A stretch of 64,000 nt of DNA, taken from NCBI RefSeq assembly GCF_030013595.1, contig NZ_CP122768.1; one strand, 5' to 3'. Shown piece by piece: positions 397 to 14,726 of the stretch (its first letter is position 1; each line of letters opens with the position of its first letter). Below the pieces are notes generated by a model that was not told where the DNA came from, searched no databases, and saw only the letters and a program-made list of their open reading frames with translations. This stretch comes from Escherichia coli. GTDB lineage: Bacteria; Pseudomonadota; Gammaproteobacteria; Enterobacterales; Enterobacteriaceae. A program made the position numbers and the translations under genes.

Positions 397-1032
397 TTAG
401 CGAGCTAATATATTCAAAGAATTTAACAATTGAGTGTCGAGTGTTTCAGTTGCAGGAATCGGTAATCCATTCGCAATGCGGTAATTTTTCACAGACAGCC
501 TTGTGGATGGCCCCATTATGCCGTCAATATTTCCGTTATAAAATCCCCTGTCCAGCAATGCGAACTGAACTCGCATAATCAATCGCTTACGTTTCTCTGC
601 ATCAGAAGCAAGCCCATTACTCGTACGGTTAACCTCTGAAGTTCCAACAGAACTCGTGTTAGTGGTTCTATTATTATCGTTAGAACGAAGTGCACGCACC
701 GAGGAAGAGGACGATGAGGAACTTGCACCTGAACTTGAAGAACCAGATGAACTTGGTGAGCTGTATGTTTTTGGATAATAGGGGGTACTTCCACCATAGT
801 ATCCACCACCTGATGAGGATCTATGAGAGCTATGGCTCCTATGAGAACTATGGCTTCGATGCCCTGCGATATAAAATGGGACTTCCGTGTTAAGTGGAGC
901 TATCACTAAATCATGCTCATTAAGAGTCATACCAGGTAAATCACTCGCTCCTGTAGATGAATCGCTTGCCCATACAGAATTGTTGAGAGCCAAAAATCCC
1001 GGAAGTAGAGCAGCAAAATTAAACTTTTTCAT
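397..1032 (-). CDS. hxsA: HxsA-type His-Xaa-Ser repeat protein (signal peptide, tandem H-x-S triplets, Ser/Gly/Tyr-rich tract, C-terminal peptidoglycan-binding domain)
   Basis: Translation from MKKFNFAALLPGFLALNNSVWA (Sec-like signal) contains HRSHSSHRSHSSHRS, then SSPSSSGSSSSGASSSSSSSS, then a PG_binding_1-like C-terminus (LLDRGFYNGNIDGIMGPSTRLSVKNYRIANGL). Start ATG overlaps upstream gene stop (ATGA). Confidence 0.8.
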   Translation of the reverse strand: MKKFNFAALLPGFLALNNSVWASDSSTGASDLPGMTLNEHDLVIAPLNTEVPFYIAGHRSHSSHRSHSSHRSSSGGGYYGGSTPYYPKTYSSPSSSGSSSSGASSSSSSSSVRALRSNDNNRTTNTSSVGTSEVNRTSNGLASDAEKRKRLIMRVQFALLDRGFYNGNIDGIMGPSTRLSVKNYRIANGLPIPATETLDTQLLNSLNILAR

Positions 1033-2141
1033 AAAATTGGTCTCGGTGATTGATGAAAACGGCCTTTTGAGGAACTGAAATAGCCAGCACAGGAAGGCTT
1101 CTGAGTACATTCATCACATTCTTTTGGATAGTAATTTTTCCAATCAGAGATCGACTGAACAGCAAGCTCCCTAGCCCTTTCAGGAAGATAACACAAAGGA
1201 TAATTAAAAATTGTCAGAGGTATGCCTGACCTGTATGCAGCGTCTATGGCAGAGATTATTTTCTCACTATAACTACTGTGATCAATGAAGATGGTGGACC
1301 AGTTTTTTCGTGCCCAACCGATAGGCTCCAACCCCATAAGGGAAATCTGATTGATGTTGGAGAACACACGGCCAGCGAATTCTACGATATCATCCAATTC
1401 GGTATAGTTAGCCAGTGTAGGAATAACTCTAAGTTCGATATTAATCCCCAAGTTTCCTGCATTGATTAACCCTTTAACCGTTTCATTAAATGCGCCATCA
1501 CTCCCTACCAGATGATCATGCACAAGTGGTCTTGATGAGTAGAGCGGGATACCAAAGGTGATTTTGATCTTTTTGCTTCGCTTTGCCATTTCCTGTGTAA
1601 AGTTGGTATCAGCAAATTTGCGTCCGTTTGTTAAAACATGTAAAGCAGTATCTGGTGAATTCTCGATGATAAAATCAATGAAGTGAAGGAAGTCATCCCC
1701 ATATAGCAAAGGTTCACCACCGCTGACCCCAACAACTCCGTTCAAGCCAAATGAAGCTATAGCAAGAGCTGATTGGGTAAGTAGCCAGTCATCATTTATT
1801 TTCTTTGGTGGCTGCGAACAAAACAGACACAAGTTATTGCAGCGTTCCGTAACTAAGACAGTATTATGATTGGCTTTGCGTGACAGAATAACGCGTATCA
1901 TATTGCCATTGTTGATTATCCCAATATCTCCATCTTCAATTGACTCAAATAATTCAGTGCTAATAACAGAGAAATCAAAGCATGGTGGAATGGCATCATT
2001 ATTGCCTTCAGCAACTACTAGCAAATTGGGCAAAAAGAATAAAGGGTTCACTGGTTTTTGTTTGCATAACCGATAGAACCCCGTGGGCACGTTCTCTGTA
2101 GAAGCAAAATGAAAGATATCGTTCCTGATAACCTCAGACAT
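1029..2141 (-). CDS. Radical SAM maturase of the His-Xaa-Ser system (HxsB/HxsC-type; which of the two is not resolved)
   Basis: 370 aa ORF with CNNLCLFC (CxxxCxxC radical SAM cluster) and a C-terminal Cys-rich region (CDECTQKPSCAGY); sits between the other rSAM gene and hxsA with overlapping stop/start codons. Confidence 0.8.
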   Translation of the reverse strand: MSEVIRNDIFHFASTENVPTGFYRLCKQKPVNPLFFLPNLLVVAEGNNDAIPPCFDFSVISTELFESIEDGDIGIINNGNMIRVILSRKANHNTVLVTERCNNLCLFCSQPPKKINDDWLLTQSALAIASFGLNGVVGVSGGEPLLYGDDFLHFIDFIIENSPDTALHVLTNGRKFADTNFTQEMAKRSKKIKITFGIPLYSSRPLVHDHLVGSDGAFNETVKGLINAGNLGINIELRVIPTLANYTELDDIVEFAGRVFSNINQISLMGLEPIGWARKNWSTIFIDHSSYSEKIISAIDAAYRSGIPLTIFNYPLCYLPERARELAVQSISDWKNYYPKECDECTQKPSCAGYFSSSKGRFHQSPRPIL

Positions 2142-3522
2142 ATGCCCATCCTTTTAGCATCTCAGCCTTCGAACCACCCTCTGAGATGCAGTTCATCAGA
2201 TACCTGAACATCCCCTTGTGATATTGACAAAACGTTGAACGACTCCTATCACCGACAGGCTCACCCTGTACACTTATGTTCTGGCATGGATCTGAACCAC
2301 AAAATGGTTGATATGCACATGTATCACAACCTGGCAGAGCAAAATTGAACGATGAACTCAATACTGCGTTATAGTAAGGACTATCAGAAAATGATAGCGT
2401 CTTAACTTCACCCGCACTGAACTCCGTTTCAGGATTCACCTTCTGCAACATACGGCTCTCATCGCTACCATATACTCGACCGTCATAATTGAAAAGAATA
2501 CTGTTAAGCACGACTCCACTTGGAGACTTTAAATCCGCATAACCACTAAAACCGGGATTGAAGATCCTTTTCAGATGAATGGAGGCCGAATGTTCCACAA
2601 CCCTTATCCCTTCATTATTAATCTTAAGGATTTCATCTATCAACGAGGCATAGAAGCTGAAGTATTCGTCCATAGAAAAGGTGAAAGAAGCTTTTTGTGC
2701 AAACCCATAGGGACTAACAGGTCGGATAAACATGTCCTTGAGACCAAGAGACAAGTGAGCCTGAACAATCGATTCAGGACGTCTGATAAGCTCTTTAGTA
2801 ACTGTAGTAACCGTTGCAACGCGGCCAGCACCTAAAGAGTGTTTGATAGCCTCTACCCCTGACACTGTTCTACTGTACGCAAGCCCACGACCAAGAATTC
2901 GATTACTGTTGTGAACAACTTCCTCACCATCAAGCGACACAGAGAACGTTATGTTCCGGTCTCTCGACCATTCAATCATATCCTCATTCAAGACAGACAG
3001 ACTTGATGCCACCACCATCTCAAAATTGGTTCTTCCCAGCGTTTCAGCACATTGATCATAGATGCTCTGAATTAAATCAAACCGCAAGAGAGGCTCCCCA
3101 CCCTGTATCTCTATTTTGTAAGGTGGCGTTGATAGTTTTTTAATAGCCGAAATAATATCGGGGATGAGCTCAGGATTTAGGTCGTAACCTGAGGCATTAA
3201 CAGAAGCTCTACTAACCTGGCAATACTTGCATGTATGGTCACAACGTAATGTGGGTACAATCATGAAAATTGGCCTGACAGCCAGTTCATTCATCAATCG
3301 TTTTGCAAAAGCAGAACTTAAAGCATAGGGAGTTATAGCAGATGAGCTTTCACTGGTTATGAAAAGCTTACTTTCTAGCACGTTTGATTGCTCCGAACTA
3401 ATTCGCTCATCAGAAAGATCAATAAGGTCTTGCTCACCAATGAAATGATGAAAACCTGCAAGGTTGCTTATAAACACCTGTCCATTAGGCAATCTGTCAA
3501 AATTAAATGGCATCAATTCCAT
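2134..3522 (-). CDS. Radical SAM/SPASM-type maturase of the His-Xaa-Ser system (HxsB/HxsC-type)
   Basis: 462 aa ORF with CDHTCKYC radical SAM motif and C-terminal auxiliary-cluster cysteines (CDTCAYQPFCGSDPCQ...FCQ); stop overlaps next gene start by 8 nt; start overlaps hxsD stop (TAATG). Confidence 0.8.
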   Translation of the reverse strand: MELMPFNFDRLPNGQVFISNLAGFHHFIGEQDLIDLSDERISSEQSNVLESKLFITSESSSAITPYALSSAFAKRLMNELAVRPIFMIVPTLRCDHTCKYCQVSRASVNASGYDLNPELIPDIISAIKKLSTPPYKIEIQGGEPLLRFDLIQSIYDQCAETLGRTNFEMVVASSLSVLNEDMIEWSRDRNITFSVSLDGEEVVHNSNRILGRGLAYSRTVSGVEAIKHSLGAGRVATVTTVTKELIRRPESIVQAHLSLGLKDMFIRPVSPYGFAQKASFTFSMDEYFSFYASLIDEILKINNEGIRVVEHSASIHLKRIFNPGFSGYADLKSPSGVVLNSILFNYDGRVYGSDESRMLQKVNPETEFSAGEVKTLSFSDSPYYNAVLSSSFNFALPGCDTCAYQPFCGSDPCQNISVQGEPVGDRSRSTFCQYHKGMFRYLMNCISEGGSKAEMLKGWAYV

Positions 3523-3836
3523 TATGAAAGCCTCTCATCAACACTGCGAAGCACTTTATGGACAATAGAGTCTCTCAACGCCCCTGTTTTATGCTGTAGC
3601 TTTTCTCGCAAAGAGTAATCATTAAGCAGCCTATCGAATTCATAAAGGAATTTGGGATTATCGTTTTCAAAAGAGATTATCCAGTGGGAAACGTCTTCAT
3701 GGAGTTTCCATCGAGTAAGCGGAGTCATCCAATATAGACTATTGCGTATAACCCATTCAGAATATAGTTCTTTCTCAAACACTCTTTCGCTCATTGCAAT
3801 TATCTTCCAATACAAATATTCATGATCAGCAACCAC
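3522..3836 (-). CDS. hxsD: HxsD-type small protein carrying the LLNDYxLRE signature
   Basis: 104 aa ORF containing FDRLLNDYSLREKLQ; first gene of the four-gene minus-strand operon. True start may be an internal Met (MSERVF). Confidence 0.75.
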   Translation of the reverse strand: MVADHEYLYWKIIAMSERVFEKELYSEWVIRNSLYWMTPLTRWKLHEDVSHWIISFENDNPKFLYEFDRLLNDYSLREKLQHKTGALRDSIVHKVLRSVDERLS

Positions 3837-6266: not shown

Positions 6267-6812
6267 TTAAACCACCACGCGCTCTTTCATCCAGCCATAG
6301 ACAAACGACTCATTGGCCTCGCGTTTCTCTGCCAGCTCCAGATAACGCTCGCCCTGCGTACAGTTCAGGGCTTTCACCAGTACCAGTTCACCATCCCTGC
6401 TGCGATTTTTCAGATATGCCCGTAATGCATTAAGAGTACGCGGCCCGATGCGTCCATCAGCATCCATATCCGGATAGAGTTTCCCGCGCAGGTTGAAAAC
6501 GTTCAGCCAGCGCTGAAGCATTCTGGACGCCACAGTTGGCCCCATGTTCACGCCCGTATCGCACAACTCTGCGGCAATATCCGGAGACAGGTCCTCAACC
6601 TGGTCGAATCGTGGTCCGTACCAGTAGTCCGCCTCGAGTATTTCCAGCGCCTGCCCACGCGTCAGGTCACGCATATCGCCCTGATAACCGTGTGCACGGG
6701 CAACTTTTTCAGTGATGCCCCATTTAGTCGGACCACCTTTATCATCCGGGTGATTGACGTAACCGCCCTCTTTTCCCAGAATTTCGTCAAAAATTTCATC
6801 TTTCGACTTCAT
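6267..6812 (-). CDS. Endolysin, GH108-like muramidase with peptidoglycan-binding region
   Basis: MKSKDEIFDEILGKEGGYVNHPDDKGGPTKWGITE N-terminus typical of GH108 lysozyme-like phage proteins; follows two holin-like membrane genes. Confidence 0.65.
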   Translation of the reverse strand: MKSKDEIFDEILGKEGGYVNHPDDKGGPTKWGITEKVARAHGYQGDMRDLTRGQALEILEADYWYGPRFDQVEDLSPDIAAELCDTGVNMGPTVASRMLQRWLNVFNLRGKLYPDMDADGRIGPRTLNALRAYLKNRSRDGELVLVKALNCTQGERYLELAEKREANESFVYGWMKERVVV

Positions 6813-6813
6813 A

Positions 6814-7104
6814 TCAGCGCCTTCGTAATACAAGGATTTTTGATACGTTCCCGCGTGCTCGTATCACCAGCACGCAGAACACCAGGTTAATCAGGACGAC
6901 CAGCCAGTTACCGGGAGGAAAGCGACCACACAGATAACAAAGCGGCGCAAAGGCATAAAGCAGCATCAGCAGCCAGGCCAGCCACGACATCAGCGGTTTA
7001 TGTCTCGACTCACCACGACGATAAAAAAAGAGCGTCAGCACGATAACCGTGCTTAACACCACATTCAGTAATCCGGGAAGGTTACTTAACATTACCGCCT
7101 CCAC
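6814..7104 (-). CDS. Small multi-pass membrane protein, holin/antiholin-like
   Basis: 96 aa, strongly hydrophobic segments, wedged between holin-like gene and endolysin. Confidence 0.45.
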   Translation of the reverse strand: MEAVMLSNLPGLLNVVLSTVIVLTLFFYRRGESRHKPLMSWLAWLLMLLYAFAPLCYLCGRFPPGNWLVVLINLVFCVLVIRARGNVSKILVLRRR

Positions 7105-7471
7105 CCCGCAGACGGGAGAACAGCCCGGATACCAGCGATGCGATATCCTGCTGGTGGATGAATGAGAGAATCTTCACCGACACCACCGATACCAGTACCG
7201 CACAAAGCGCGTCGAGAGATGTGCTGTGGAGATTCAATTTTTCGACCAGCCAGGACGCAAGGACATCCGCCCCCAGCACGCCAACAATGAACGACACCAG
7301 AAAATGCGCCGCCACACGCCAGACAGAAATCACCTGTGGCATCGTGGCCACAAACAACGCCCCGGCAAACGCGCCAAACACAATCCCGAAATCCGTCCCG
7401 GTAAACAGCCCGAATACCGTCGCCCCGCCGAGCGCCACAGCAGTGCTGGAACCGGATAAGGGTTCAGACAT
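7082..7471 (-). CDS. Holin-like membrane protein
   Basis: Start MSEPLSG at 7471 with GGAGAA RBS; Gly/Ala-rich transmembrane segments; first gene of the lysis cassette. Confidence 0.5.
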   Translation of the reverse strand: MSEPLSGSSTAVALGGATVFGLFTGTDFGIVFGAFAGALFVATMPQVISVWRVAAHFLVSFIVGVLGADVLASWLVEKLNLHSTSLDALCAVLVSVVSVKILSFIHQQDIASLVSGLFSRLRGGGGNVK

Positions 7472-7670
7472 ATTTATTCTCCTGTAAATAAAAAGGACCA
7501 TCAGCGGCCCCGTAACTGACATTTTATTAACGTTTGAAGATATGGATATTTATCAGGGTTTACCGTTTTCTGAACCCTGGATATGTTAAGCATTCAGCCC
7601 GCCAGTGGTGGGACGCTGGCTCATCATAGAGAAAGAGGGATGGCTGATTACCTCTGATCAGGGAAATCAC

Positions 7671-9095: not shown

Positions 9096-10181
9096 TTAGC
9101 TCCTGTTCTTATCTAATTGTGCATTTCGCAATTTATCGTTCAGCACCAATATTTCACCAACTGTTTGTTCAAAACGCCCGGACTCAAGTTCAACCCCAAT
9201 CGTGCGACGCCCCAATCCCATTGCTGCTTTTATTGTTGCCCCCGATCCCATAAAAAAATCCGCAACCACATCCCCCGGACGACTGCTGGCAGAAATTATC
9301 TGACGCAACATATCCGCCGGTTTTTCGCAGGGATGCTTACCCGGATAATACTGCACGGGCTTATGCGTCCAGACGTCCGTATAAGGAACGGCGGCCGATA
9401 CAGAAAAATAACGCCGCAGAGATTTGTATTCCTCAAGCAGACTGGCATATTGCCGGTTCAGTTCACTGTATGTGCTGACCAGTTGCTGGTGTGGCGTTGC
9501 CAGCTCCCCACGCTGGTGCTTTTCTTCTGCAACACACGCGAACAGCGCCTGCAGTTTTCTGTAATCAGCTTCGTTCGGTAACTGCCACTGACAGGTACCA
9601 AACCAGTGCGACACCATGTTTTTCTTTCCGGTGGCTTCCGCTATCTGTTTGGACGTTATCCCCAGTGATTCACGCGCATCACGGAAGTAAGAAATCAGCG
9701 GGGCCATGACGTGTTGTTTAAGCTCGCGCTCCTTTGCCGCATAGCCATCATTTTTTGGCTGGTATGGCCCCTGATAATGTTCGGCAAACAGAATGCGCTC
9801 TGTTGCCGGGAAATACGCCCGCAGGCTTTCTTTGTTGCACCCGTTCCAGCGTCCGGATGGCTTCGCCCAGATAATGTGGTTCAGCACATTAAAGCGCTCA
9901 CGCATCATGATTTCGGTGTCAGATGCCAGGCGATGACCACAGAACAGGTAGAGACTTCCGGCAGGTTTCAGTACCCGCCAGAACTGAGCCAGACACTGAT
10001 CCAGCCATTTCAGGTAATCATCGTCGCCCTTCCACTGGTTATCCCAGCCCTCGGGCTTCACTTTAAAGTATGGCGGGTCTGTGACTATCAGATCGACAGA
10101 GTTTTCCGGTAAGGTCTGGATAAATTCCAGGCAATCAGCGTTGATTAACTCACAACTGGATATTTTTACAGTATCAACCAT
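9096..10181 (-). CDS. Orphan DNA N6-adenine (or N4-cytosine) methyltransferase, beta class
   Basis: LIVTDPPYF (motif IV) precedes DFFMGSGATIKAA (motif I); no adjacent restriction endonuclease gene. Confidence 0.75.
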   Translation of the reverse strand: MVDTVKISSCELINADCLEFIQTLPENSVDLIVTDPPYFKVKPEGWDNQWKGDDDYLKWLDQCLAQFWRVLKPAGSLYLFCGHRLASDTEIMMRERFNVLNHIIWAKPSGRWNGCNKESLRAYFPATERILFAEHYQGPYQPKNDGYAAKERELKQHVMAPLISYFRDARESLGITSKQIAEATGKKNMVSHWFGTCQWQLPNEADYRKLQALFACVAEEKHQRGELATPHQQLVSTYSELNRQYASLLEEYKSLRRYFSVSAAVPYTDVWTHKPVQYYPGKHPCEKPADMLRQIISASSRPGDVVADFFMGSGATIKAAMGLGRRTIGVELESGRFEQTVGEILVLNDKLRNAQLDKNRS

Positions 10182-10331: not shown

Positions 10332-10529
10332 TCACTGCGGAAGGCGTCTGTAACAACCGAACTGATAATCTGCCAGACCCGCCATAACAAGCTGGGTCAG
10401 TATTAACTGACAGCGTTCGCGTGAAAGGTAAGTATTCTGCGCAATTTCCCCAACTGTTGCCGGTTCAGTGACGCTTAATTCATTAAACACCACTCTGGCT
10501 GTTTCGGTCATATCCTGCTGTTTTAGCAT
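10332..10529 (-). CDS. Small hypothetical protein, possibly DNA-binding
   Basis: 65 aa ORF upstream of the methyltransferase. Confidence 0.3.
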   Translation of the reverse strand: MLKQQDMTETARVVFNELSVTEPATVGEIAQNTYLSRERCQLILTQLVMAGLADYQFGCYRRLPQ

Positions 10530-10702
10530 GTCTTTTTCTCTTTATTGGTTAACGTGACATACCAATAACTCTTGTCGAAAAAGCCAGCAAGCTGAAAGAC
10601 CGGTATTAATAACCACCTGCACATTTTATGTACCGAACCATTTTTCTGGCATAAAAAACCTCTCAATGGCGGGCGGTAAAAATCTTTGTTACTCAAGAAA
10701 TT

Positions 10703-11416
10703 TTAACGCACTCTGACTGTATTAATTTCAAAATCATTAATATTTCCGCTATTAAATATAACGAATTTCTTACCCCCACTCCTGTATGATTTCGATAACA
10801 CCAGACGATCATCATAACGCGCAATAATGTAATACCATACATTCTCATAGTGGATCGCCTGATATTCCCTCTTAAACTGTGGTTTGTACCAACCGGCAAT
10901 AAGAGAGAATGCCCAGAAATAAATCATAAACCCAGCCATCATGAACTCAATTCGGTGATGACGAATAAAAGACATTTCCGAAAAACATTTGACTGAAACA
11001 AGTCTTCTTCCAAACCTGACAAAAAGCGTGATTGTAAAGGCAGCAAGAATGCAGAAAATCAGTACATCTGGCTCAACATGCTGATGGATTACCGAAAACT
11101 CCAGAACAGGTGGAATAAAAAGCAGCAATATCGCGAGAAAAAGCCGGATAAAACTCAAATTTTGTATATTGCGCTTTTGTTTTATGCCCAAAAAGAAAAC
11201 AATACCAACTCCCCATCCAATAAGGAATATAACGATAACTGTCACAGCATAAAACAAACTTCGTGCTACATCATCGACACCAGCCCCGACAACCCACCAT
11301 GGAAAGCCATAGTAAAATGAAGTACCCCATCCATAGAAATAAGCGCTTCCCCATCCTAGACAGCCCATATAAGCAACAAAAAGTGAAGAGTTTCTGAGCA
11401 GAGCACTGTCATCCAT
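10703..11416 (-). CDS. Multi-pass membrane protein of unknown function (first gene after pR'/tR')
   Basis: 237 aa with about four hydrophobic helices and an approx 50 aa soluble C-terminus; lies in a visibly AT-rich segment. Confidence 0.5.
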   Translation of the reverse strand: MDDSALLRNSSLFVAYMGCLGWGSAYFYGWGTSFYYGFPWWVVGAGVDDVARSLFYAVTVIVIFLIGWGVGIVFFLGIKQKRNIQNLSFIRLFLAILLLFIPPVLEFSVIHQHVEPDVLIFCILAAFTITLFVRFGRRLVSVKCFSEMSFIRHHRIEFMMAGFMIYFWAFSLIAGWYKPQFKREYQAIHYENVWYYIIARYDDRLVLSKSYRSGGKKFVIFNSGNINDFEINTVRVR

Positions 11417-11554
11417 AGTAACACCATTAACAACTCAAAAATATCAACACATATTACATAACAAATTGGATTCCATGCAGTCAAGGGGCGTCATTGATGG
11501 AGAAAGTATTGGCACAATCATCATCACGTTTAATGTCTATGCCATTTTTTTGGG

Positions 11555-11583
11555 GATAAAAAAACCCGCTCGGTCACGGGTTT
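11555..11583 (-). terminator. tR'-like Rho-independent terminator
   Basis: aaacccgtgaccgagcggguuu hairpin followed by T-run on the minus strand, about 50 nt downstream of the putative pR'. Confidence 0.55.
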
Positions 11584-11637
11584 TACTAGCTTTGCCATCA
11601 CGTATAAAAACGGCAAAATATCAGATTCACACGAAAT

Positions 11638-11666
11638 ATATGCCTTTTTATCTACTTTTGCAATAC
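11638..11666 (-). promoter_or_regulatory. pR'-like late promoter immediately downstream of Q
   Basis: Minus-strand TTGCAA, 17 nt spacer, TATATT; positioned between Q stop (11671) and the terminator. Confidence 0.45.
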
Positions 11667-11670
11667 TTTG

Positions 11671-12342
11671 CTATGAAAATGCCGCCTTTTGTTTTGAACG
11701 TGTTCCCTCCACCAACAATAAAGCTTCACCATCCAGCCGATGAAAAATGTGTTTCATTGCAACCCAGTGACCAGTAAATGTCTTGGACCAGTTTTTGGTT
11801 GTTACTCCCACCAGTAACGCCAGTTCCTGGTATTCGTAACCTTCCCCACCAAAAAGCTCAGCTTTTACCGCCTGCGCCGCCAACCAGATCAACGTCTTCA
11901 GGCGCACCAGAGTTTTTCCTGCAATTTTTCTGGTACCGGATTGAGCATTAAATTCAGTCCACGCCCACTGCGTTATCGCGATCTGATGCTCCCAGCAAAT
12001 GCTACCGCTGTAACACCACAGCAGCCAGGCTTTATGATGTTCTTCAAGAGACAGAACGGCGCGTCGCCATGATGATGTCGAAAACTCAACCGGACTGACC
12101 AGGGCAATTGATGAACCTTTCACCAGCGATTGCTTTCCCGGGATCGGTGGATTATCCAGCGTTACTATTTTTCCAGTGACCTTATCGCGGTACCGGATTT
12201 TTTTACGTCTGTAACGCCCTGTATTGAACATGGCATTCTCCTGCCAGGCTTCAAGCTGACCTTTTGTTGCTCCACTCAAATCAGCGGTGGCGATCATGAG
12301 CTGCTCACGCACAAACTGTAAATACTGGTTATTCATGCGCAC
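11671..12342 (-). CDS. Probable late antiterminator (Q-like)
   Basis: 223 aa ORF directly upstream of a promoter/terminator pair and downstream of rusA, the canonical Q position; family assignment by context only. Confidence 0.45.
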   Translation of the reverse strand: MRMNNQYLQFVREQLMIATADLSGATKGQLEAWQENAMFNTGRYRRKKIRYRDKVTGKIVTLDNPPIPGKQSLVKGSSIALVSPVEFSTSSWRRAVLSLEEHHKAWLLWCYSGSICWEHQIAITQWAWTEFNAQSGTRKIAGKTLVRLKTLIWLAAQAVKAELFGGEGYEYQELALLVGVTTKNWSKTFTGHWVAMKHIFHRLDGEALLLVEGTRSKQKAAFS

Positions 12343-14028: not shown

Positions 14029-14163
14029 CGGTTTTCTCTGCTGGCGCAGCAGGTGCCAGTTGTTCAAGCTGGCGTGCGGCAATATTGTCTCTGATTTCTG
14101 TTGTCGTCAACAGGCAACGTGCTATCATCGAATGGTGTTCTATCCTACTCCGTGAGGTTTACC

Positions 14164-14421
14164 ATGCGTACAACCCAACAATTCAGCATTACATTAACTA
14201 ACGAAATGGCTGACATGGTGCGCGCCCGTGTGGCTTCCGGTGCCTATGCTTCAGAAAGCGAGGTCATTCGTGAAGGGCTTCGCGCACTGAATGAGCGCGA
14301 TAAAGCAATCGAAGCGTGGTTAACGCATTCAGCCGCCCCCTCTCTTGATTCTATCCGCGAAACCCCAAACAACGGACGCTCCATTTCACAGGTTCGCGCC
14401 GCGATTCGATCCGGGAAGTAA
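14164..14421 (+). CDS. parD: ParD-family antitoxin (ribbon-helix-helix)
   Basis: 85 aa; MRTTQQFSITLTNEMADMVRARVASGAYASESEVIREGLRAL typical ParD; immediately upstream of a ParE-like gene. Confidence 0.8.
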   Translation: MRTTQQFSITLTNEMADMVRARVASGAYASESEVIREGLRALNERDKAIEAWLTHSAAPSLDSIRETPNNGRSISQVRAAIRSGK

Positions 14422-14426
14422 TCTGC

Positions 14427-14726
14427 ATGACATATGAAGTCATCATTACTCCTGAGGCCGAACAACAAATAATCAACCTGCACAGGTATATAACGGAGAA
14501 AGCAGGGAACGTCATTGCTGACAATTATGCCAATGCGCTTCTTGATTATCTTGATGGGTTTTCTACATTCCCGCATCGGGGCAATAAACGCGATGATATT
14601 CGCCAGGGGATGCGGGTAACTCATTTCCGCCACAGAACGATTATTGCTTTTGCCGTTGATAGCAGAAAAGTCTTTATTGTCGGTATCTATCATGGTGGGC
14701 AAAGTTATGAAACCGATTTCTTATAA
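14427..14726 (+). CDS. parE: ParE/RelE-family toxin
   Basis: 99 aa; starts 6 nt after parD stop; a hairpin terminator follows. Confidence 0.75.
   Translation: MTYEVIITPEAEQQIINLHRYITEKAGNVIADNYANALLDYLDGFSTFPHRGNKRDDIRQGMRVTHFRHRTIIAFAVDSRKVFIVGIYHGGQSYETDFL

Follow-up and report, generated by a model that had tools for sequence, protein, structure and literature searches.

A TfpB/STM1630-family membrane-protein gene, possibly carried as an accessory cassette, at the start of the late region of an Escherichia coli lambdoid prophage

What does an AT-rich membrane-protein gene do at the very start of the late region of a lambdoid prophage? This question is raised by a locus within a 64,000-nucleotide stretch of Escherichia coli contig NZ_CP122768.1 (assembly GCF_030013595.1), referred to here as the window. 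A first-pass annotation, made from the letters of the window and a list of its open reading frames, had placed the gene directly after a pR'/tR' pair and recognised no family for its product, which was proposed as a candidate for superinfection exclusion, abortive infection or lysis timing. Here we report that the product is, with little room for doubt, an inner-membrane protein of the TfpB/STM1630 family with a predicted architecture of five transmembrane (TM) helices and a C-terminal beta domain, and we weigh the functions that have been or may be proposed for it.

The open reading frame (ORF) occupies positions 10703-11416 on the minus strand, begins with ATG and has no in-frame start further upstream. 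ORF calling, the GC profile and hydropathy analysis confirmed the description of the locus as an AT-rich gene for a 237-aa membrane protein. Its GC content is 39.1% (GC3 36.6%) against 49.4% for the window, and it lies in a low-GC dip extending from about 10450 to 11650, with flanks of about 50% GC on either side. Comparison with four E. coli alleles gave dN/dS values of 0.13-0.20 overall and of 0.02-0.08 for residues 1-57, with no sign of diversifying selection among these alleles; the ORF is a real gene, and purifying selection acts on it. Copies 99.9% identical to it are annotated in RefSeq as hypothetical proteins. A search for a second family copy within the window found none, and the other 237-aa ORF of the window (397-1110) is unrelated.

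The statement that the protein belongs to no recognisable family proved wrong. The protein matches the PHROG 1521 profile (E 9.6e-85, residues 17-237 aligned with positions 1-221 of the 222-position profile), which is annotated as 'unknown function', and BLASTP aligned it over its full length with TfpB of Moraxella bovis (30% identity over 233 aa, E 1e-27). The Pfam family PF27470, named "TfpB" in the domain look-up, is precomputed for 104/104 homologues, one of which is 98% identical to the window protein, whose own membership is therefore by proxy. Searches of NCBIfam and Pfam-A with the window protein itself gave no usable match, the Pfam-A copy being older than PF27470, and no similarity to any enzyme family was found in Pfam or NCBIfam. 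The family is thus already catalogued in Pfam and PHROG and is of unknown function. It includes STM1630 of Salmonella Typhimurium (homologue P0069, 238 aa, 48% identical to the window protein) and gp68 of phage 434 (CPT_434_68, 'putative membrane protein', 56% identical), and RefSeq applies the label 'STM1630 family protein' to E. coli copies that are 83% identical. Homologue P0069 was equated with STM1630 by means of a published deletion primer, which encodes the N-terminal peptide NSSMLLAYLGGLGWG, and by the SseJ-type effector gene that adjoins the Salmonella copy.

Members of the family share the motif A-Y-x-Y-G-W-[GA]...Y-[YH]-G-[FY]-[PS]-W-W...A-R-S-L and a C-terminal Y-Y-x-L, the latter at residues 195-198 of the window protein. 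In alignments A2, A3 and A4, the positions of both the signature of the window protein, AY.YGWG..YYGFPWW......ARSL at residues 25-54, and the C-terminal Y-Y-x-L are invariant or nearly so, and the family motif is specific, retrieving 20 loci from 100,044 genomes. A nucleotide search of 50,697 phage records gave no match, and at the protein level phage matches were found only in phages 434 and 2B8.

The topology and structure predictions that the first-pass annotation had called for were carried out, and they modified its picture of about four TM helices followed by a soluble C-terminal domain. The Kyte-Doolittle scale gives four strong TM segments (residues 53-77, 88-107, 117-135 and 156-176), and both the Wimley-White octanol scale and an AlphaFold2 (AF2) model add an N-terminal, aromatic/Gly-rich helix at about 10-36, so that the earlier count was one too low. 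In the AF2 model the helices span approximately residues 10-36, 47-78, 88-111, 116-138 and 155-181, and the C-terminal domain, which was correctly anticipated, is a small, five-stranded, all-beta unit of about 55 aa (residues ~184-235). The model has a pLDDT of 82 and a pTM of 0.75; with enterobacterial sequences alone as input the pLDDT was 61, and the addition of distant homologues raised it to 82. Foldseek aligned it with AFDB models of the Escherichia albertii, Salmonella and Neisseria members at TM-scores of 0.84-0.95, and nothing similar was found among solved and viral structures. Hydropathy and positive-inside charge counts are consistent with this architecture, and the model points to a topology that is probably N-in/C-out. 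Loops 78-87 and 138-155, which are positively charged, would then lie on the cytoplasmic side, and the invariant, aromatic/Gly-rich face formed by TM1, the following loop and TM2 (Y26, W30, Y35-Y36, P39-W40-W41 and R52-S53) would face the periplasm together with the beta domain.

The surroundings of the gene are those of a lambdoid late region. The late antiterminator gene Q lies upstream (11671-12342, minus strand; PHROG 304, E 2e-104), and its product is 76% identical by BLASTP to Q of phage 434, which is annotated as Q82-like in the 434 record. Just past the Q stop codon, a pR'-like sigma-70 promoter candidate, TTGCAA-17-TATATT (11635-11663, minus strand; promoter scan score 9/12), is conserved as a site in phage 434, which has the same type of Q. 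RNA folding detected a tR'-like, intrinsic-terminator-like hairpin, AAAACCCGU-GACCGA-GCGGGUUUU, followed by a U-run (11557-11584, minus strand), the counterpart of which is an annotated terminator in phage 434. The hairpin is kept in 6/6 aligned loci and forms the 5' edge of the conserved cassette, since the sequence upstream of it diverges with the type of Q. From the hairpin to the start codon runs an AT-rich leader of about 140 nt (11417-11556, minus strand), which travels with the gene in the alignment of loci. It contains a block, CTTGACT (11484-11479)-18 nt-TGtTATGTA (11463-11455), that six loci have in common, among them phage 434 and an island remnant lacking Q; this block is a possible weak extended -10 promoter, although it falls under the threshold of the promoter scan. 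An Rfam scan of the leader gave no match. The 3' edge of the shared cassette lies about 20 nt past the stop codon (10683-10702, minus strand) in the downstream alignment of six loci, beyond which the loci diverge into a small ORF (PHROG 331) and a DNA methyltransferase gene in the window, or into tRNA genes elsewhere. A terminator downstream of the ORF was sought, and none found there was convincing.

The gene is the first ORF, about 250 nt after Q, in 5/5 sampled intact E. coli prophage contexts as well as in phage 434, which supports its assignment to the position directly after pR'/tR' as the first late ORF and shows that this position is conserved. Phage 434 gp68 likewise follows a Q82-like Q, a terminator and the conserved leader, but the downstream genes of phage 434 (TciB, a small membrane protein and a SASA esterase) differ from those of the window. 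The cassette is also found behind two unrelated Q proteins and in Q-less prophage remnants beside iroBC. In the HK97/HK022 literature, a moron is an accessory insert whose base composition sets it apart from the rest of the phage genome; the locus has the corresponding marks, namely a deviant GC content, cassette edges defined by alignment, presence behind unrelated Q types and absence from phage 434B. The best reading of the terminator, the ~140-nt leader and the ORF is a compact, AT-rich moron cassette of ~900 bp that opens the late region of a lambdoid prophage. It resembles the morons known between Q and the lysis genes of lambdoid phages (stx, nmpC, tRNAs, nanS-p, iss/bor) in being a compositionally distinct insert that is present or absent among relatives; their products are unrelated to the window protein, however, and the window cassette opens with a terminator and does not form a clear promoter-gene-terminator unit.

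Homologues occur in four bacterial families. The distribution of the family is patchy, and some genomes carry multiple copies. In E. coli, it is found in prophages or prophage remnants of about 8% of complete genomes, and many of the copies in iro islands are 5'-truncated pseudogenes. All members recovered outside the enterobacteria belong to Moraxella, Neisseriaceae or Pasteurellaceae, and a profile search of a 5.8-billion-protein set with alignment A2 detected no further lineages. The family gene is a stand-alone chromosomal one, away from any lysis context, in Pasteurellaceae, Neisseriaceae, Moraxella and Salmonella. Its neighbours in Pasteurellaceae, in Neisseriaceae and on metagenomic contigs are unrelated housekeeping genes, so the search of non-enterobacterial neighbourhoods revealed no conserved partner gene of the family. 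In Aggregatibacter actinomycetemcomitans, copies adjoin the rmlB and WbaP genes, a polysaccharide neighbourhood seen in that one species.

In M. bovis, M. lacunata and M. equi, tfpB lies between or beside pilin genes and a piv-like recombinase ORF. The M. bovis ORF, TfpB of the type IV pilin gene inversion region, is located between two inverted pilin gene halves. Moraxella TfpB and the window protein share full-length homology, the same length class, the signature AY.YGWG..YYG[FY]PWW..ARSL and a C-terminal beta domain with Y-Y-x-L; what differs is the genomic setting, a pilin locus in the one case and a lambdoid late region in the other. Truncated forms of tfpB are present in M. lacunata and M. 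equi; together with the pseudogenes of the iro islands, this indicates that host-side selection on the family is not universal.

Salmonella STM1630 has the same architecture as the window protein and is likewise an AT-rich, horizontally acquired accessory gene, but it is fixed in the chromosome between the effector genes steB and sseJ and has its own promoter, whereas the window gene lies behind a phage late terminator. H-NS binds STM1630, whose expression was observed in SPI-2-inducing medium and in macrophages (PMC6785131). Attenuation of STM1630 mutants in calves and chicks was reported by an earlier signature-tagged screen, as cited in PMC6785131, and an effect in macrophages was seen in one strain only (PMC6785131). 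A hypermotile phenotype was recorded in one screen and is missing from the confirmed list of the markerless-deletion follow-up. The host-side role that these data suggest for one family member speaks for the accessory reading given below; that the STM1630 phenotypes are weak or inconsistent speaks against it.

We hold with moderate confidence the overall explanation that the locus is an accessory (moron) cassette that opens the prophage late region and encodes a TfpB/STM1630-family envelope protein. Transcription of the ORF, the first late one, would come mainly from read-through of the terminator under Q antitermination, and the leader's own promoter may add weak expression. It counts against this explanation that an ORF behind a terminator is more likely to be expressed late in the lytic cycle, as would suit a phage-serving role, and that the putative leader promoter, on which expression in the lysogen would depend, is below the scan threshold. 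As to mechanism, we tentatively favour an accessory, non-lytic envelope factor that acts by binding. The protein would work alone and non-enzymatically. At the periplasmic leaflet it would bind an envelope component that is membrane-anchored or lipid-linked and thereby alter how the envelope or surface of the induced or lysogenic cell behaves, and it would take no part in lysis or virion production. A non-enzymatic action is suggested by the invariant or near-invariant residues of the family, which are aromatic residues, Gly, Pro, Ser and two Arg and include no Asp, Glu or His; this is weak evidence against an enzyme, as the conserved Tyr, Ser and Arg could be catalytic.

The functions suggested for the gene at the outset gained nothing positive from the searches that bear on them, those of PADLOC and of the holin families being empty, while its position held. 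The first-pass annotation had itself set against these suggestions any clear homology to a characterised holin or antiholin or to a housekeeping transporter. Both were looked for: PHROG, Pfam and NCBIfam contained no holin or antiholin homologue of the protein, and no transporter homology or fold match was found. A membrane protein whose gene precedes the lysis cassette on the late transcript could be a lysis-timing regulator, that is, a holin, an antiholin or a component of lysis inhibition, but not only is a holin-family match absent, the window also has its own lysis genes, two holins (PHROG 198 and 217) and an endolysin at 6267-7522, ~3 kb downstream and behind unrelated genes. Moreover, the family occurs chiefly at non-phage chromosomal sites, and the viable phage 434B lacks the region containing gp68, this segment being replaced by the lysis genes of DLP12, which indicates that the phage 434 homologue is dispensable for plaque formation. 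The stand-alone occurrence of the family outside lysis contexts and the viability of 434B make a role in lysis timing unlikely; we consider it extremely improbable, and an identity as holin or antiholin was rejected. Superinfection exclusion or abortive infection, by which an inner-membrane protein would block DNA entry or abort the infection by other phages, appears unlikely. A multi-pass inner-membrane protein in a prophage accessory slot that acts alone, with no conserved partner gene, would suit this function, and patchy spread, multiple copies and frequent pseudogenes are all common for defence genes. Moraxella tfpB, furthermore, lies in a pilin locus, and certain pilin accessory genes of Pseudomonas guard against pilus-specific phages (PMC11841053). 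Against this stand the PADLOC-DB defence models (2023 library, which covers part of the Sie proteins), of which none matched, the only hit being AbiC at E 0.88 and 7 bits. The slot behind the late-transcript terminator implies low expression in the repressed lysogen, unless the leader promoter works, and many members lie between housekeeping genes and outside defence islands. The classical lambdoid exclusion genes, as in lambda and P22, are located elsewhere, in the immunity or tail regions. Co-regulation of the Salmonella member with SPI-2 virulence genes and the absence of any sign of diversifying selection likewise speak against exclusion.

The family name and the tfpB loci at the pilin genes of the three Moraxella species point to an accessory factor for type IV pilins or pseudopilins, which would bind the hydrophobic N-terminal helix of pilin-like proteins within the inner membrane and modulate the pilus or type II secretion. 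The non-enterobacterial members are confined to Moraxella, Neisseriaceae and Pasteurellaceae, all of which carry type IV pili, and the Gly-rich TM1 with its interfacial conserved Arg could pair with another TM helix. The known proteins TfpX, TfpY, TfpZ and FimB, likewise small and located in the inner membrane, have a C-terminal domain in the periplasm and no domain recognisable as enzymatic; bacterial two-hybrid assays suggest that TfpY interacts with pilins (PMC11841053), which offers an analogy for the possible action of a TfpB-type protein. However, most members lie away from pilin genes, as does the window ORF, near which no pilin gene was found, tfpB is truncated in two of the Moraxella species, and the paper on TfpX/Y/Z and FimB makes no mention of TfpB (PMC11841053). 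These proteins are also set apart by their published description, having three TM helices, a larger beta-alpha-beta periplasmic domain and, for TfpY and FimB, a gene directly downstream of the major pilin, as opposed to five TM helices and a ~55-aa all-beta domain. Identity of the window protein with TfpY/FimB was rejected on this architecture, by comparison of the published description with the AF2 model, and the pilin-factor function as a whole appears improbable. About as improbable is a membrane-embedded enzyme that would bring about lysogenic conversion by modifying LPS, lipid or peptidoglycan. Its appeal comes from the predicted periplasm-facing, aromatic-rich conserved site of a multi-pass protein, from the lipid A deacylase, iss and sialate esterase genes that occupy the Q-to-lysis slot in relatives, and from the rmlB and WbaP neighbours; invariant Asp, Glu or His are absent, though, no enzyme family of Pfam or NCBIfam matched, and the polysaccharide neighbours belong to a single species.

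A bolder proposal, which we regard as quite unlikely, is that the family members are a hitherto unrecognised class of stand-alone inner-membrane gatekeepers. With their invariant aromatic/Gly-rich periplasmic face and their beta domain, they would bind incoming phage components or envelope proteins anchored in the membrane, pilin-like ones included. Lambdoid phages would have captured such a gene as their first late gene, and its product would switch off an envelope machine or keep out competitors during the lytic burst. If true, this would provide one mechanism for Moraxella tfpB, Salmonella STM1630 and phage 434 gp68.

Copies of the gene were already present in RefSeq, and the family in Pfam and PHROG. 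What is added here is that Moraxella tfpB, the SPI-2-co-regulated STM1630 and the first late ORF of phage 434 and E. coli prophages form one family, which moves as a defined cassette of ~900 bp beginning at the late terminator. The gene is now a well-delimited unknown and no surprise; its interest would be higher if its function were exclusion or control of an envelope machine. This unification makes lambda-type genetics, such as the comparison of 434 with 434B and Q-dependent expression, a tractable system for the function of the family. In Shiga-toxin-type prophage architectures, a membrane protein produced as late transcription begins could affect how the envelope behaves during induction.

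The open reading frame (ORF) at 10703-11416 on the minus strand, found exactly where the first-pass annotation had placed it (237 aa, ATG start, with no in-frame start further upstream), very probably encodes an inner-membrane protein of the TfpB/STM1630 family, carried by a moron cassette that heads the late region of a lambda-like prophage. The first-pass annotation recognised no family, but the protein has an end-to-end match to PHROG 1521 (E 1e-84; labelled function unknown), all 104 of 104 homologues from a collection of 5.8 billion proteins have a precomputed match to Pfam PF27470, which is TfpB according to contig annotation look-up, and some E. coli copies, 83% identical, are named 'STM1630 family protein' in RefSeq. 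Since the exact protein is already in RefSeq as a hypothetical protein (99.9% DNA identity) and the family is held by Pfam and PHROGs, TfpB/STM1630 is already known as a sequence family, without known function. It is small, with only 58 representatives at E <= 0.001 among 1.8 billion proteins clustered at 50%, and its members are spread over Enterobacteriaceae, Pasteurellaceae, Neisseriaceae, and Moraxella.

The link to TfpB came from scanning a single genome of each species with a motif, which recovered a Moraxella bovis contig. There the homologue, a 261-aa ORF that aligns over 233 residues with 30% identity (E 1e-27), has the C-terminal half of a pilin gene on either side, the two in inverted orientation. 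The Moraxella lacunata homologue is flanked by a piv-like recombinase ORF and a full pilin gene. The N-terminal peptide of the Salmonella homologue P0069, 48% identical to the window protein, is encoded by the published STM1630 deletion primer, and the Salmonella diarizonae copy adjoins an SseJ-type effector gene; STM1630 itself is situated between steB and sseJ (PMC6785131). In phage 434, the homologue is gp68, a 'putative membrane protein' with 56% identity.

Upstream of the ORF on the same strand are genes for a DUF968/HNH protein, RusA, and the late-gene antiterminator Q (11671-12342, PHROG 304), the latter sharing 76% identity with its phage 434 counterpart, which is annotated as Q82-like in the 434 record. 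Downstream are a small PHROG 331 ORF, a DNA methyltransferase, two holins, and an endolysin, and a near-identical E. coli prophage carries matching annotation. The interval from the Q stop codon to the ORF holds a promoter-like site (TTGCAA-17-TATATT, 11663-11635), a hairpin with a U-run (11584-11557), and a leader of ~140 nt, so that the earlier description of the gene as immediately following pR'/tR' was a fair one for a candidate promoter and a candidate terminator. The leader, which has no Rfam match, contains a conserved element, TTGACT-18-TGtTATGTA, that scores below the consensus-scan threshold and may, judging from its sequence, be a weak promoter. A TTG-start ORF of 103 aa (11466-11777, plus strand), antisense to the leader, the terminator, and the 3' end of Q, is probably spurious.

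Several other features of the window were recorded. The PHROG 331 ORF (65 aa, 10332-10529, minus strand), whose stop codon overlaps a terminator-like hairpin at 10345-10328, and the methyltransferase that comes after it (361 aa, 9096-10181, minus strand) are replaced as a pair by tRNA genes in other prophages. An antitoxin/toxin pair (PHROG 6494 and PHROG 5232; 14101-14726, plus strand) lies opposite in strand to the surrounding minus-strand nin-like region. A protein encoded at 397-1110 (minus strand), also of 237 aa but unrelated to the window protein, contains HRSHSSHRSHSSHRS His-Xaa-Ser repeats, long Ser-rich tracts, and a C-terminal domain; with the adjoining radical-SAM ORFs (1029-2141 and 2134-3522) and a 104-aa ORF, it forms a minus-strand set at 397-3836 that looks like a His-Xaa-Ser repeat/radical-SAM maturase system.

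An alignment of six loci covered the window, phage 434, three further E. coli prophages, and a remnant prophage next to iroBC. Homology starts at the terminator hairpin, spans the leader and the ORF, and ends ~20 nt past the stop codon. The Q proteins of two of these prophages have no detectable similarity to the window Q, and the cassette is followed either by the small ORF and methyltransferase or by tRNA genes and then holins. Terminator, leader, and ORF thus make up a ~900-bp module, which holds the first late-transcript position whatever the Q type. The same hairpin and leader occur at five retrieved loci (L033, L034, L035, L031, and L001), behind two mutually dissimilar Qs and in a Q-less island remnant, with a recombination boundary just upstream of the terminator. 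The module limits match a low-GC stretch (~10450-11650, with flanks of ~50% GC), in agreement with the AT-richness remarked on earlier: the ORF has 39.1% GC (GC3 36.6%), compared with 49.4% for the window as a whole. The cassette is present in 451 of 5,426 complete E. coli genomes, where many copies of 80-90% identity lie in iro islands next to a tRNA-Arg gene and are pseudogenes truncated at the 5' end. Three iro-island copies (L031, L032, and L036; 81-84% DNA identity), which neighbour iroBC, a tRNA-Arg gene, IS elements, a lysis-gene fragment, and iss, are prophage remnants within a pathogenicity island; those of ABU 83972 and ST80 are 5'-truncated pseudogenes, and that of YC21-F17 is intact.

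The topology and structure prediction recommended by the first-pass annotation yielded five predicted transmembrane (TM) helices followed by a beta domain. Its estimate of about four TM helices agrees with the four strong hydrophobic segments on the Kyte-Doolittle scale; it misses a fifth, N-terminal aromatic/Gly-rich segment, which is likewise membrane-partitioning on the Wimley-White octanol scale and helical in the structure model. Derived from an alignment of diverse sequences, the model (pLDDT 82, pTM 0.75) has long helices at residues 3-36, 47-78, 89-111, 116-138, and 155-181, and the C-terminal domain noted earlier takes the form of five beta strands (184-235). As Lys and Arg are concentrated in loops 78-87 and 138-155 and absent from loops 34-49 and 111-116, an N-in, C-out topology is predicted, with the conserved TM1-loop-TM2 segment and the beta domain facing the periplasm. 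Family-wide (near-)invariant positions are aromatic, Gly, Pro, and Ser residues and two Arg (including A25, Y26, Y28, W30, G37, P39, W40, R52, S53, R91, G175, and Y195-Y196).

We tentatively favour an accessory, non-lytic, and non-enzymatic envelope factor, whose target would be a membrane-anchored or lipid-linked component on the periplasmic side, and whose expression would come mainly from Q-dependent read-through of the terminator. This reading and its rivals rest on sequence, model, context, and literature, not on direct functional evidence. A part in lysis timing is very improbable. Homology to a characterised holin/antiholin or a housekeeping transporter, which the first-pass annotation said would overturn its proposal, was absent from sequence and structure searches, and the window's own holins and endolysin are encoded ~3 kb away. 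No profile of NCBIfam, PADLOC, or Pfam (in a copy predating PF27470) matches the protein, no viral predicted structure resembles it, and AFDB50 returned family members (TM-score up to 0.95) and otherwise only uncharacterised proteins of 13-18% identity. An envelope-modifying enzyme is improbable as well; alignments of the whole TfpB family contain no conserved Asp, Glu, or His. In Aggregatibacter actinomycetemcomitans, where two strains have two family copies per genome (L019, L021, L023, L024, and L026), a dTDP-glucose 4,6-dehydratase gene adjoins at least two loci, one of them also near a WbaP-type phosphotransferase gene; this may be coincidental or may point to a connection with polysaccharides. 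A role as an accessory to pilins or pseudopilins, suggested by the Moraxella neighbourhoods, is only slightly less doubtful: the characterised accessory proteins TfpX/Y/Z and FimB combine three TM helices with a larger beta-alpha-beta domain (PMC11841053, which makes no mention of TfpB), a different architecture that leaves analogy only. Moreover, tfpB is cut short by frame disruption to 195-197 aa in M. lacunata (L014, L015) and Moraxella equi (L018), and is thus not essential there.

Superinfection exclusion or abortive infection is unlikely, though less so. Against it stand the position in the late transcript, the lack of matches to defence models, the location of family members among housekeeping genes, and the missing signal of diversifying selection. 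Outside enterobacteria, the flanking genes are unrelated (htpX-like/ABC-F, guaA/sulfate permease, SMC/FtsK, DnaK, UbiX/PurF, rpoH/mqo, and tsaB among them), with no recurring partner. In pairwise comparison with four E. coli alleles, dN/dS is 0.13-0.20 overall, 0.02-0.08 for residues 1-57, and as high as 0.38 in the C-terminal domain; the ORF is under purifying selection and shows no mark of an arms race.

Published work on homologues also bears on the role of the gene. In 434B, a viable clear-plaque derivative of phage 434, DLP12 sequence takes the place of ~5.5 kb that contains Q, the late promoter, and the lysis region (PMC9119081, a genome announcement for phages 21 and 434); gp68 lies inside the annotated region of non-homology, and the 434 homologue is therefore dispensable for plaque formation. 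STM1630 is H-NS bound, expressed in SPI-2-inducing medium and macrophages, and silenced in ST313 by two promoter SNPs; its deletion increased intramacrophage replication in strain 4/74 only (PMC6785131), and a signature-tagged screen, as cited there, reported attenuation of its mutants in calves and chicks. Expression data group STM1630 with SPI-2 and PhoP-type genes. A hypermotile phenotype came up in one screen, but it is missing among the confirmed phenotypes of the markerless-deletion follow-up.

What is added here is a connection among three orphan genes from different research fields, a model of five TM helices and a periplasmic beta domain, and the limits of the mobile cassette together with its constant position behind unrelated Q types.
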